Both the position numbers and the translations under genes were made by a program. The notes under the pieces were generated by a model. That model did no database searches. It was not told the DNA's origin and saw only the letters and a list, made by a program, of their open reading frames with translations. Positions 59,440 through 60,080 of a stretch of 64,000 bases of DNA are shown piece by piece. The DNA comes from Enterobacteria phage ECP2307, in the sequence record PP461118.1; one strand, 5' to 3'. Numbering within the stretch: position 1 is the first letter of the stretch; each line of letters opens with the position of its first letter.

Positions 59440-59440
<1 letters not shown>

Positions 59441-59679
59441 TACATTTTTCCTGCTCTTCTAAGTTCGTTGTAAGCAATTTCCTCTTTATACGACCTCTGA
59501 ATTTCAAGAAATTGTCTCAATGATAATAAATCAGAGAATGTCATAGCAAAGAGTTGGTCAAGTGTTTCTTTACACCCTTCCATACCATAAATAGCAAGCA
59601 CAAATTTCATCTCGTCTGCTTCTTCATAGGTTGCCTCTACAGCAGCATCAGTCAGTGGTGTCTGTAGAGTGTTACCCAT
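59440..59679 (-). CDS. tail assembly chaperone, downstream (-1 frame) segment
   Basis: Sits in -1 frame relative to upstream ORF; directly upstream of tape measure. Confidence 0.5.
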
Positions 59680-59681
59680 GT

Positions 59682-60080
59682 TTACTGAGAAGTTAGGCTT
59701 TTGAAAATGCTTGCTTCGAAAAAACTTCCGAAATTTGCCTCCAGCGCAAATGCTAAGTAATCAATAAATTCACCATAGTTTGCTTGGAAGTATGTATCAA
59801 TATTAAGTGGGAAGTCATCAACAGTTGCCCCTTGAAATAATAGGGTAGCCATTTCTTCAAGGTTAATTTCTTCAATTCTGTCAAAACAAGCTTCAACAAG
59901 TTCTTTAAATGGAACCATTGGAGCTTCTTTCTTATCTTTATCAGTCAGACTTGATAGCATCTGTGCAAAAGTTGGAACAACAATTTTACCCAACTTCATA
60001 GACATCTTAATACCATCTCTTGCCCCAAGCAGAACGATATTTACTTTCTTACCATTAATTACTCTAGATTCTGTTTTCAT
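59682..60080 (-). CDS. tail assembly chaperone (upstream ORF of frameshift pair)
   Basis: Position between tube and tape measure; T_TTT_TTC near its 3' end. Confidence 0.55.
   Translation of the reverse strand: MKTESRVINGKKVNIVLLGARDGIKMSMKLGKIVVPTFAQMLSSLTDKDKKEAPMVPFKELVEACFDRIEEINLEEMATLLFQGATVDDFPLNIDTYFQANYGEFIDYLAFALEANFGSFFEASIFKSLTSQ
59718..59724 (-). promoter_or_regulatory. candidate -1 programmed ribosomal frameshift heptamer T_TTT_TTC (approximate position)
   Basis: Codons AGT TTT TTC (SFF in the track protein); -1 frame open into downstream ORF. Confidence 0.45.

Follow-up and report, generated by a model that had tools for sequence, protein, structure and literature searches.

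A predicted programmed −1 ribosomal frameshift in the tail assembly chaperone gene pair of a FelixO1-like phage

The chaperone gene pair and its slippery heptamer

The window analyzed here is a stretch of 64,000 nucleotides from Enterobacteria phage ECP2307 (PP461118.1), and all features described in it, including the tube, ORF1, ORF2 and tape measure genes, are carried on the minus strand. The gene order is tail sheath, tail tube, a terminator-like hairpin, the tail assembly chaperone (TAC) gene ORF1, ORF2 in the −1 frame, and then the gene for the tape measure protein (TMP). The phage is a Felixounavirus, a FelixO1-like myovirus, and ORF1 and ORF2 are its tail assembly (tape measure) chaperone pair.

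The tail sheath gene (60616..61968, 450 aa) matches PF11863 (E = 5.9e-22) and phrog_205, 'tail sheath' (1e-122), and its presence identifies a contractile-tail phage. The tail tube protein gene (60154..60600, 148 aa) matches PF11681 (3.6e-7) and phrog_280 (9e-48). The tube gene is separated from the chaperone gene by a terminator-like hairpin with a T tract (60104..60143), composed of a 13-bp stem with 6 GC pairs followed by TTTTGTTT. A terminator has been annotated at the equivalent position of AYO145A, Michonne and Meda, and the hairpin probably reduces the transcription that reaches the chaperone and tape measure genes. The tape measure protein gene (57212..59440, 742 aa) matches PF20155 (TMP_3, 2.3e-17) and phrog_4036 (E = 0), and its product is the presumed client of the chaperones. 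As read from the sequence, its ATG overlaps the stop codon at the end of ORF2, which would also end the fusion described below (TAATG).

ORF1 (59682..60080, 132 aa, the tail assembly chaperone 'G' product) is preceded by the Shine-Dalgarno (SD) sequence AAGGA, with a pairing energy of −6.1 kcal/mol, and ends with TAA at 59684..59682. An hmmscan search against Pfam-A matched it to PF21822 (Phage_TAC_15) with E = 1.2e-19 and 71.5 bits, against a cutoff of 22. It also matches phrog_1613 (8e-49) and phrog_3840, 'tail assembly chaperone'. Comparison of the ORF1 profile with PDB sequences gave nothing below E = 0.4, and a Foldseek search of the PDB gave no significant match.

ORF2 (59440..59679, 79 aa) lies in the −1 frame relative to ORF1 and ends with the stop codon at 59442..59440. 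A Pfam search with ORF2 returned no family. Its ATG is located 2 nt past the ORF1 stop (TAA-AC-ATG), as is also the case in the majority of Felixounavirus genomes. This spacing would suit the production of two separate proteins, with ORF2 translated from its own ATG (59679) by termination–reinitiation coupling and no fusion formed, and most Felixounavirus records in GenBank, RefSeq included, do list two separate CDSs. However, the ORF2 ATG shows no Shine-Dalgarno pairing (+0.7 kcal/mol), and only 3% of long ORFs are as weak.

Close to the end of ORF1, the codons AGT TTT TTC (S119, F120 and F121) form the slippery heptamer T_TTT_TTC (59718..59724), in the correct phase for a −1 shift. The final stop codon in the −1 frame is at 59763..59761, and the productive −1-open overlap with ORF1 amounts to 76 nt. 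A shift at the heptamer would join 121 residues encoded by ORF1 to a 92-aa 'T' part, which begins with the last C of the heptamer, read a second time, ends with the TAA (59440..59718), includes ORF2, and matches phrog_4963 (2.8e-55). The predicted GT fusion has 213 aa (~24 kDa), with the predicted junction peptides ANFGSFFR or SKHFQKPNFSVNMGNTLQ....

A preliminary description of this DNA had placed a downstream ORF in the −1 frame of an upstream one between the tail tube and tape measure genes, a T_TTT_TTC heptamer (SFF) about 35 nt before the upstream stop, a −1 frame open from there into the downstream ORF, and a fusion of roughly 210 aa. The arrangement is indeed present, on the minus strand, and the fusion size agrees with the computed one; the heptamer is separated from the ORF1 TAA by 33 nt, and the first −1-frame stop encountered after 59760 is that of ORF2.

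The overlap that follows the heptamer (59682..59717) is dual-coded, with the 0 frame encoding EASIFKSLTSQ*, the end of G, and the −1 frame the linker RSKHFQKPNFSV of the predicted GT. The match to phrog_3840 grows through the junction, from 146.9 bits for ORF1 alone (residues 1–131) to 162.8 bits for the fusion (residues 1–151).

Could the heptamer and the frame arrangement be a coincidence without function? Canonical in-frame X_XXY_YYZ heptamers occur 45 times per 17,650 codons in window ORFs of at least 100 aa, and the productive stretch of 25 codons would contain one or more by chance with a probability of ~6% when the single sequence alone is considered, with a further 1 in 3 for the −1 frame relation. 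In-frame T_TTT_TTY is found exactly once in these ORFs, at the present site. The evidence from comparison of related sequences, presented below, is far stronger than this single-sequence chance estimate. All of it opposes coincidence, and the conservation analysis effectively refutes this explanation, whose probability we regard as negligible.

A second canonical in-frame heptamer, A_AAT_TTC (59730..59736), is incidental. It is not conserved, being replaced by the synonymous AAC TTC in most relatives. In L024 and L025 it precedes the part that is open in the −1 frame, and in the window a GGAGG motif is just 1 nt away.

Conservation among relatives

Relatives with ORF1 identities from 100% down to 27% were compared for the heptamer. 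All of those examined share the −1 arrangement except L040, a Buttiauxella prophage. At every −1-arranged locus examined, T_TTT_TTC (T_TTT_TTT in the most distant relatives) is present in frame and inside the −1-open stretch. Past the ORF1 stop, the −1 frame runs for 57–83 aa in the relatives and the +1 frame for only 1–18 aa, and the length of the T part is constant in all of them (91–95 aa). A −1-frame TAG abuts the 5' end of the heptamer in L042, and 3 nt separate the opening of the −1 frame from the heptamer in L037. These −1-frame stops pin the shift site to the heptamer.

Window codon usage (Ser codons ending in T, 0.53; Phe TTT, 0.59) predicts that the peptide SFF would be encoded as the heptamer in ~31% of cases per independent lineage. 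Conservation of the heptamer is partly confounded with that of the SFF peptide, yet L040 keeps SFF without the heptamer, encoding it as TCA TTC TTC.

The start of ORF2 is less constant. In L013 its ATG is replaced by ATA, and in L038, L039, L042 and phiEa104 no start codon precedes the conserved N-terminus of the T part (QTPLTD/TPRTE...). The ATG is also missing in L032–L037. The upstream −1-frame peptide is nevertheless conserved in these relatives, which argues against the production of ORF2 solely as a separate protein. At the start-less loci, gene callers left a gap, or called only 34–37 aa.

The synonymous sites provide a further line of evidence. The fraction of synonymous differences in the 33-nt overlap is 0.04 for the 0 frame and 0.027 for the −1 frame, compared with 0.12–0.30 elsewhere in ORF1, and synonymous variation at the three SFF codons is 0. 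The overlap carries a dual-coding signature. Synonymous sites upstream of the ORF2 ATG are frozen, for which the coding of ORF1 alone is an insufficient explanation. The overlap cassette is also the only nucleotide-level similarity to the Ounavirinae of Erwinia and Pectobacterium.

The Buttiauxella prophage L040 serves as a natural control. Besides its heptamer-less ORF1, it has a separate 201-aa gene, the product of which is collinear with the predicted fusions across the junction (57 bits, residues 15–194 against 15–206). Alignment with the window fusion gave 51.6 bits (E = 5e-13), linker included, and the window linker, encoded in the −1 frame upstream of the ORF2 ATG, aligns with KPFVKPDF of this single-ORF homologue, a further point against separate translation of ORF2. 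This two-gene variant (G plus a hard-wired G'-T) supports a need for both products. The hard-wired homologue was found only through its genomic context. When 5.8 billion proteins were searched with the 213-aa fusion for a natural in-frame counterpart, all 92 matches covered only the ORF1 part, and a scan of species-representative genomes yielded just one additional locus.

Taken with the lack of SD pairing at the ORF2 ATG, these observations make two separate proteins without a fusion very unlikely. Some independent reinitiation at the ORF2 ATG, alongside the fusion, may nevertheless occur.

Candidate stimulators and the alternative of transcriptional slippage

An internal SD-like element, GGAGG (59738..59742, within the codons CTG GAG GCA), is located 13 nt 5' of the heptamer, and is a candidate 5' stimulator. 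The spacing reported as stimulatory for −1 shifts is 9–14 nt (PMC5009743). The anti-SD pairing of this element (−9.3 kcal/mol) is stronger than that of 90% of the real ribosome binding sites in the window, and is reached by 0.45% of random positions. GGAGG is depleted in the window as a whole, with 30 occurrences observed against 53.8 expected.

An SD-like element is kept 11–13 nt upstream of the heptamer in most lineages, through differing codons and amino acids (LEA, KEN, REN). The retained anti-SD forms are GGAGG, AAGGAG or GGGAG, and occur both in Ounavirinae and in relatives with only 27–35% identity. In at least four lineages that carry the heptamer (L039, L037, L035 and phiEa104) the element is weak or absent, and so it is in the heptamer-less L040. 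Its conservation is confounded with that of the amino acids encoded there.

No stimulatory hairpin or pseudoknot was detected downstream of the heptamer, as folding of the 48, 78 and 118 nt past it (the first two being 59717..59670 and 59717..59640) gave z-scores of 0.84, 0.02 and −1.51 against shuffled sequences. An 8-bp inverted repeat ~46 nt downstream, with the stem CTCTACAG...CTGTAGAG, was rejected as too distant, and relatives at 80% identity do not share it. Because no significant downstream stimulatory structure was found, the efficiency of the shift may be low. The window also contains no tRNA genes that might affect Phe decoding. [quoted passage not shown]

By analogy with dnaX, the −1 slip may be helped by the GGAGG 13 nt upstream, a suggestion to which we give nearly even odds. 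That the frameshift of the whole chaperone family is driven by such a dnaX-like 5' SD stimulator, and not by any 3' structure, is a further idea, somewhat less likely than not. If true, the family would offer a natural series for the tuning of the G:GT ratio, with members in which the SD-like element is present, members in which it is absent, and one in which the frameshift has been resolved into two genes.

The identical 213-aa fusion would also result from transcriptional slippage, in which RNA polymerase adds one U at the T6 run in some of the transcripts. The site is a homopolymer run (T6 in the window, T7 in the distant relatives L032–L036), and transcriptional slippage is used by bacteria and IS elements (PMC5009743). 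The protein made after a polymerase slip is the same as that made after a ribosomal shift, so comparative evidence at the protein level does not separate them, and neither would mass spectrometry, because both give ...SFFRSK.... However, the T run is always in exact X_XXY_YYZ phase, and the SD-like element at 9–14 nt, kept in most lineages, has no role in polymerase slippage. Bacterial RNA polymerase typically requires runs of ~8–9 T to slip efficiently, and the T6 of this site is shorter, which also counts against this route. In addition, the shift at TTTTTTG in P2, the studied myophage precedent, is described as a translational frameshift (PMC3091744). We therefore consider transcriptional slippage very unlikely.

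Proposed mechanism and comparison with known systems

From these sequence comparisons, we propose, with a probability of about 0.9, that the gene pair is expressed through a programmed −1 ribosomal frameshift on TTTTTTC. Most ribosomes would reach the ORF1 TAA and release the 132-aa G chaperone. A minority, with one tRNA-Phe on UUU in the P site and another on UUC in the A site of U_UUU_UUC, would slip back by 1 nt, and each tRNA would pair anew with a −1-frame UUU. These ribosomes would read on through CGA AGC AAG..., a linker of 13 residues and all of ORF2, to give the 213-aa GT. In analogy to G/GT of lambda and E/E+E' of P2, the G part common to both products may form a coat on the tape measure protein, and the T part may recruit the tube protein, with the slip rate fixing the G:GT ratio. 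The tube protein encoded at 60154..60600 is the partner that the T part is presumed to bind, after gpV of lambda.

Sequence comparison shows how the locus is arranged, where the shift site lies and that this site is conserved, as well as the dual coding and the equivalence to a single-ORF homologue, and several independent comparative lines support a −1 frameshift of the G/GT (E/E') type, as had been suggested in the preliminary description. Of the features that mark the G/GT type (Xu, Hendrix and Duda, 2004), a position between the tube and TMP genes, a −1 open overlap and a conserved in-frame heptamer were found here. As to initiation signals of the downstream part, SD pairing is absent and many relatives have no start codon, but the window does have the ORF2 ATG just past the ORF1 stop. 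The synthesis of two proteins, the ratio between them and the partners that they bind are predictions. In the literature we found no experiment demonstrating two products for this phage or any member of the chaperone family, and the published statements are all bioinformatic.

The frameshift in the FelixO1-like chaperone pair has been annotated before, and the mechanism is an ordinary one. Chaperone slippage is stated in three genome announcements (PMC4591319, PMC4319497, PMC5543628). The scientific yield of the present analysis is another case of a textbook mechanism, with the candidate SD-like stimulator and the natural two-gene variant as modest additions. Its value for annotation is that a joined CDS with ribosomal slippage at TTTTTTC should replace the separate CDSs, which appear in most Felixounavirus records as separate 'tail assembly chaperone' CDSs, as 'hypothetical proteins' or under mis-registered names. 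Felixounaviruses are widely used candidates for the biocontrol and therapy of Salmonella and E. coli, and correct annotation of their structural module is somewhat useful.

Among the known systems, E. coli dnaX has a similar internal SD-like element within 9–14 nt upstream of its −1 heptamer (PMC5009743). It differs in that it also needs a strong 3' hairpin, whereas none was found 5–9 nt past the heptamer in the present phage. In addition, dnaX uses A_AAA_AAG, and its shift yields a shorter product, unlike that predicted here.

Lambda, a siphovirus, shifts on G_GGA_AAG, and its chaperones belong to a different sequence family from those of the present phage. The likeness to gpG and gpGT extends to the presumed roles, with G coating the tape measure protein and T recruiting the tube protein (PMC5009743). 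The ~30:1 ratio and the binding partners are established for lambda only.

The E/E+E' genes of P2 likewise form a tail chaperone pair of a myovirus, adjoining the tape measure gene and with a −1 shift on T6N. The heptamers differ in the last base (TTTTTTG in P2, TTTTTTC here), and the product sizes are 91 and 142 aa in P2, compared with 132 and 213 aa. PMC3091744, citing Christie 2002 and Xu 2004, describes the P2 shift on TTTTTTG as occurring with no downstream RNA structure. The P2 frameshift is experimentally supported, whereas that of the present phage is predicted from sequence. An hmmscan search of ORF1 against all of Pfam-A (E ≤ 0.1) gave only PF21822 and one chance-level match, placing ORF1 in a different TAC sequence family from gpE.

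The same system as that described here is found in Salmonella phage Meda (MH586731, a Felixounavirus, 98% identical) and Citrobacter phages Michonne (KT001916) and Moogle (KM236239), all annotated with slippage in GenBank. The joined CDS of Meda covers exactly the interval equivalent to 60080..59440, and the slippage coordinate of Michonne is the fourth T of the orthologous heptamer. Meda, Michonne, Moogle and Mijalis (the Citrobacter phages being Mooglevirus) carry orthologues of both genes with an identical TTTTTTC heptamer and −1 fusion, and show no substantive difference from the phage studied here.

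The tail chaperone genes and the probable shift site

The tail module of the window lies on the minus strand and comprises the sheath gene (61968..60616; PF11863, phrog_205), the tube gene (60600..60154; PF11681, phrog_280), ORF1 of 132 aa (60080..59682; Pfam Phage_TAC_15, E=1.2e-19; phrog_1613 'tail assembly chaperone'), ORF2 of 79 aa (59679..59440; phrog_4963 'tail assembly chaperone', with no Pfam family matched), and the tape measure protein (TMP) gene (59440..57212; PF20155, phrog_4036). Between the tube and chaperone genes is a strong terminator-like hairpin (60143..60114, minus strand; 13-bp stem, with its T tract within 60104..60143), which the records of AYO145A, Michonne and Meda list as a terminator and which may attenuate transcription and keep chaperone and tape measure levels below those of sheath and tube. 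The stop codon of ORF2 overlaps the tape measure start codon in a TAATG (59438..59442, minus strand). Termination at this start is confined to ribosomes in the -1 frame; those in the zero frame end 240 nt upstream.

The preliminary description proposed a -1 programmed frameshift in this pair, and the gene order and frames read from the sequence place ORF2 in the -1 frame of ORF1, between tube and tape measure. ORF1 ends in GCA AAT TTC GGA AGT TTT TTC GAA GCA AGC ATT TTC AAA AGC CTA ACT TCT CAG TAA, followed on the minus strand by AC ATG GGT, the start of ORF2. A T_TTT_TTC heptamer in canonical phase (59724..59718; codons AGT TTT TTC, S119 F120 F121) lies 33 nt before the ORF1 stop (59684..59682), where about 35 nt had been proposed. 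The nearest upstream stop in the -1 frame is at 59763..59761; therefore a -1 slip at any point in 59760..59685 joins the frames, and the -1 frame is open from the heptamer into ORF2, as claimed. The predicted product of a slip on the heptamer has 213 aa, against the roughly 210 anticipated, and consists of 121 aa of ORF1, the linker RSKHFQKPNFSVN and ORF2. Since every element of that first reading is present, the observation is confirmed.

T_TTT_TTC is a member of a shift-prone class in E. coli: U_UU.Y ranks second among A-site tetramers, and motifs with homogeneous X and Z are preferred (PMC4066793). The long ORFs of the window contain 45 canonical in-frame heptamers per 17,650 codons, which gives a chance of ~6% of finding one in a 25-codon stretch; T_TTT_TTY occurs in frame once in these ORFs, at the chaperone site. 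A second canonical in-frame heptamer, A_AAT_TTC (59736..59730, minus strand), absent from the preliminary description, lies within the productive stretch, 12 nt upstream of T_TTT_TTC. It is probably incidental: most relatives have AAC TTC, and few carry AAT at this synonymous AAT/AAC polymorphism. Judged by the window sequence by itself, the case for a frameshift is only suggestive.

Conservation among relatives and a two-gene variant

For comparison, about 50 related loci were drawn from IMG/VR, GTDB genomes, public assemblies and phages in GenBank, with ORF1 identities to the window of 100% to 27%. Wherever a locus had the -1 arrangement, T_TTT_TTC was in frame and inside the -1-open stretch, with T_TTT_TTT in its place in the most distant group (L032-L036, 27-35% identity). 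Beyond the ORF1 stop of these loci, the -1 frame runs for 57-83 aa and the +1 frame for only 1-18 aa, and the predicted post-slip part is 91-95 aa throughout. Two relatives pin the predicted slip site: in locus L042 TTTTTTC comes straight after a -1-frame TAG, and the -1 frame of L037 becomes open 3 nt ahead of the heptamer. In loci L038, L039, L042 and Erwinia phage phiEa104 the downstream domain has a conserved N-terminus (QTPLTD/TPRTE...) that no start codon precedes, and gene callers give a gap or only 34-37 aa for it; locus L013 has ATA at the position of the window ORF2 ATG.

Synonymous variation was analyzed in 36 unique sequences of at least 48% identity, as the share of synonymously different pairs among codon pairs for the same amino acid. 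This share was 0.12-0.30 along ORF1, 0.04 in the 11 codons between heptamer and stop, 0.027 for the -1-frame linker, and 0 at S119, F120 and F121. With the codon usage of the window, SFF is expected to spell the heptamer in only ~31% of cases per independent lineage. In a sensitive blastn search with the 641-nt gene pair, Erwinia and Pectobacterium Ounavirinae matched only query 346-386 or 301-369, both of which include the heptamer. The phrog_3840 match covers residues 1-151 of the fusion (162.8 bits) versus 1-131 of ORF1 alone (146.9 bits); it runs on through the junction.

A prophage of Buttiauxella noackiae (L040:4001-4986; GCA_000737905.1, JPRU01000001.1) has two paralogous genes instead of a frameshift. 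Its ORF1 homologue (126 aa, 46% identity) encodes ENFGSFF as AAC TTT GGC TCA TTC TTC and thus lacks the heptamer, so the SFF peptide can evidently stay conserved without it. The next gene, starting at an overlapping TAATG, is separate and encodes a 201-aa protein paralogous to its neighbour across the G part (31% identity, the alignment stopping at ENFGSFF/ENFGVFL). This protein is collinear with predicted fusions across the predicted junction (L038 fusion, 15-206 against 15-194, 57 bits; window fusion, 81-208 against 64-194, 51.6 bits, E=5e-13), and its KPFVKPDF aligns with the -1-frame linker KHFQKPNF. In this prophage, then, loss of the slippery codons goes with direct encoding of a full-length GT-like protein. 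What is established at the level of sequence is the architecture, the site and its conservation codon by codon, the coding in two frames, and the correspondence of the fusion to a homologue encoded by one ORF; this comparison supports the earlier G/GT (E/E')-type reading.

Candidate stimulators and alternative routes to the downstream product

No stable hairpin follows the heptamer in the window (z = 0.84 for 48 nt, 0.02 for 78 nt), and no conserved hairpin was found 3' of it. The stem ~46 nt downstream, an 8-bp perfect inverted repeat in the 5' part of ORF2 (59620..59655, minus strand; CTCTACAG(N19)CTGTAGAG), is too far from the heptamer for a typical stimulator, and relatives at 80% identity do not keep it. 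In the distant locus L032 (2848-2880), a local hairpin, GGAAAGGGU...GCCCUUUU, begins ~4 nt after T_TTT_TTT (z = -1.8), and the related L033-L036 seem to keep a weaker one at the equivalent place.

Upstream, an internal GGAGG (59742..59738, minus strand) lies 13 nt from the heptamer. At -9.3 kcal/mol, it pairs with the anti-Shine-Dalgarno (SD) sequence more strongly than do 90% of the real ribosome binding sites of the window, and only 0.45% of random positions attain this value; GGAGG is itself rarer in the window than expected (30 found vs 53.8). Most lineages have an SD-like element pairing at -7 kcal/mol or better at 11-13 nt, in codons and residues that vary by lineage (CTG GAG GCA, AAG GAG AAC, CGG GAG AAC, AGG GAG AAT). 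In L039, L037, L035, phiEa104 and the heptamer-less L040 the element is weak or missing. An SD stimulates -1 shifting at a spacing of 9-14 nt, as for dnaX (PMC5009743), and GGAGG is a plausible, if still tentative, candidate for this role.

The same fusion could be made by transcriptional slippage, if RNA polymerase added one U on the T6 run; the protein would be identical, and protein data cannot separate the two routes. The shortness of the run, the constant phase of the heptamer among relatives and the SD-like element upstream argue against this and favour the ribosomal route.

It is possible that ORF2 is also translated independently in the window genome, by reinitiation at TAA-AC-ATG. The 17 nt upstream of its ATG have no anti-SD complementarity (+0.7 kcal/mol, a value as weak in only 3% of the window's long ORFs; ORF1 -6.1, TMP gene -5.1 kcal/mol). 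The reinitiation arrangement is, however, not conserved among relatives, and it leaves the frozen synonymous sites 5' of the ATG unexplained.

Proposed mechanism and relation to known systems

From these comparisons, we put the probability that G and GT arise through a -1 shift on T_TTT_TTC at roughly 90%. By analogy with lambda G/GT and P2 E/E+E' (PMC5009743, PMC3091744), most ribosomes would produce the 132-aa G, and a minority would shift on U_UUU_UUC, where the tRNA-Phe of both the P and the A site would re-pair to UUU, to give the 213-aa GT. G would coat the tape measure protein and the T part would recruit tube protein, and both G and GT would be absent from the virion.

The chaperone frameshift is already known, being annotated for the genus Felixounavirus and a sister genus. 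For Michonne, Moogle and Mijalis, which are FelixO1-like phages of Citrobacter, the genome announcements describe a tape measure chaperone with a -1 translational frameshift (PMC4591319, PMC4319497, PMC5543628). Joined CDSs are given for Moogle (KM236239) and for Michonne (KT001916), the latter with 'ribosomal slippage (47149)' at the fourth T of the orthologous TTTTTTC. Salmonella phage Meda (MH586731), of the same genus as the window phage and 98% identical at the locus, has a joined CDS, 'Tape measure chaperone frameshift product', that spans precisely the corresponding interval. Most other Felixounavirus records, RefSeq included, have two separate CDSs or hypothetical proteins, and we found no experimental demonstration for the FelixO1-like lineage in the literature. 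Product names look out of register with the genes in Escherichia phage VpaE1_ev108 (LR597658.1), in which 'Ad1 adapter' stands for the sheath, 'Tail sheath protein' for the tape measure, and 'head closure' and 'tail completion' for the two chaperone ORFs; ORF1 is named 'head closure protein' in C600M2 (OK040807.1).

The new points are modest: the candidate SD-like stimulator, the lack of structure 3' of the heptamer, the second heptamer that relatives do not conserve, and, as a natural control, the two-gene variant of Buttiauxella. The window pair is a typical case of the conserved tail-chaperone frameshift, and its hairpin-free T_TTT_TTC resembles P2 E/E+E', in which the shift is reported to occur on TTTTTTG, likewise without a hairpin (PMC3091744).
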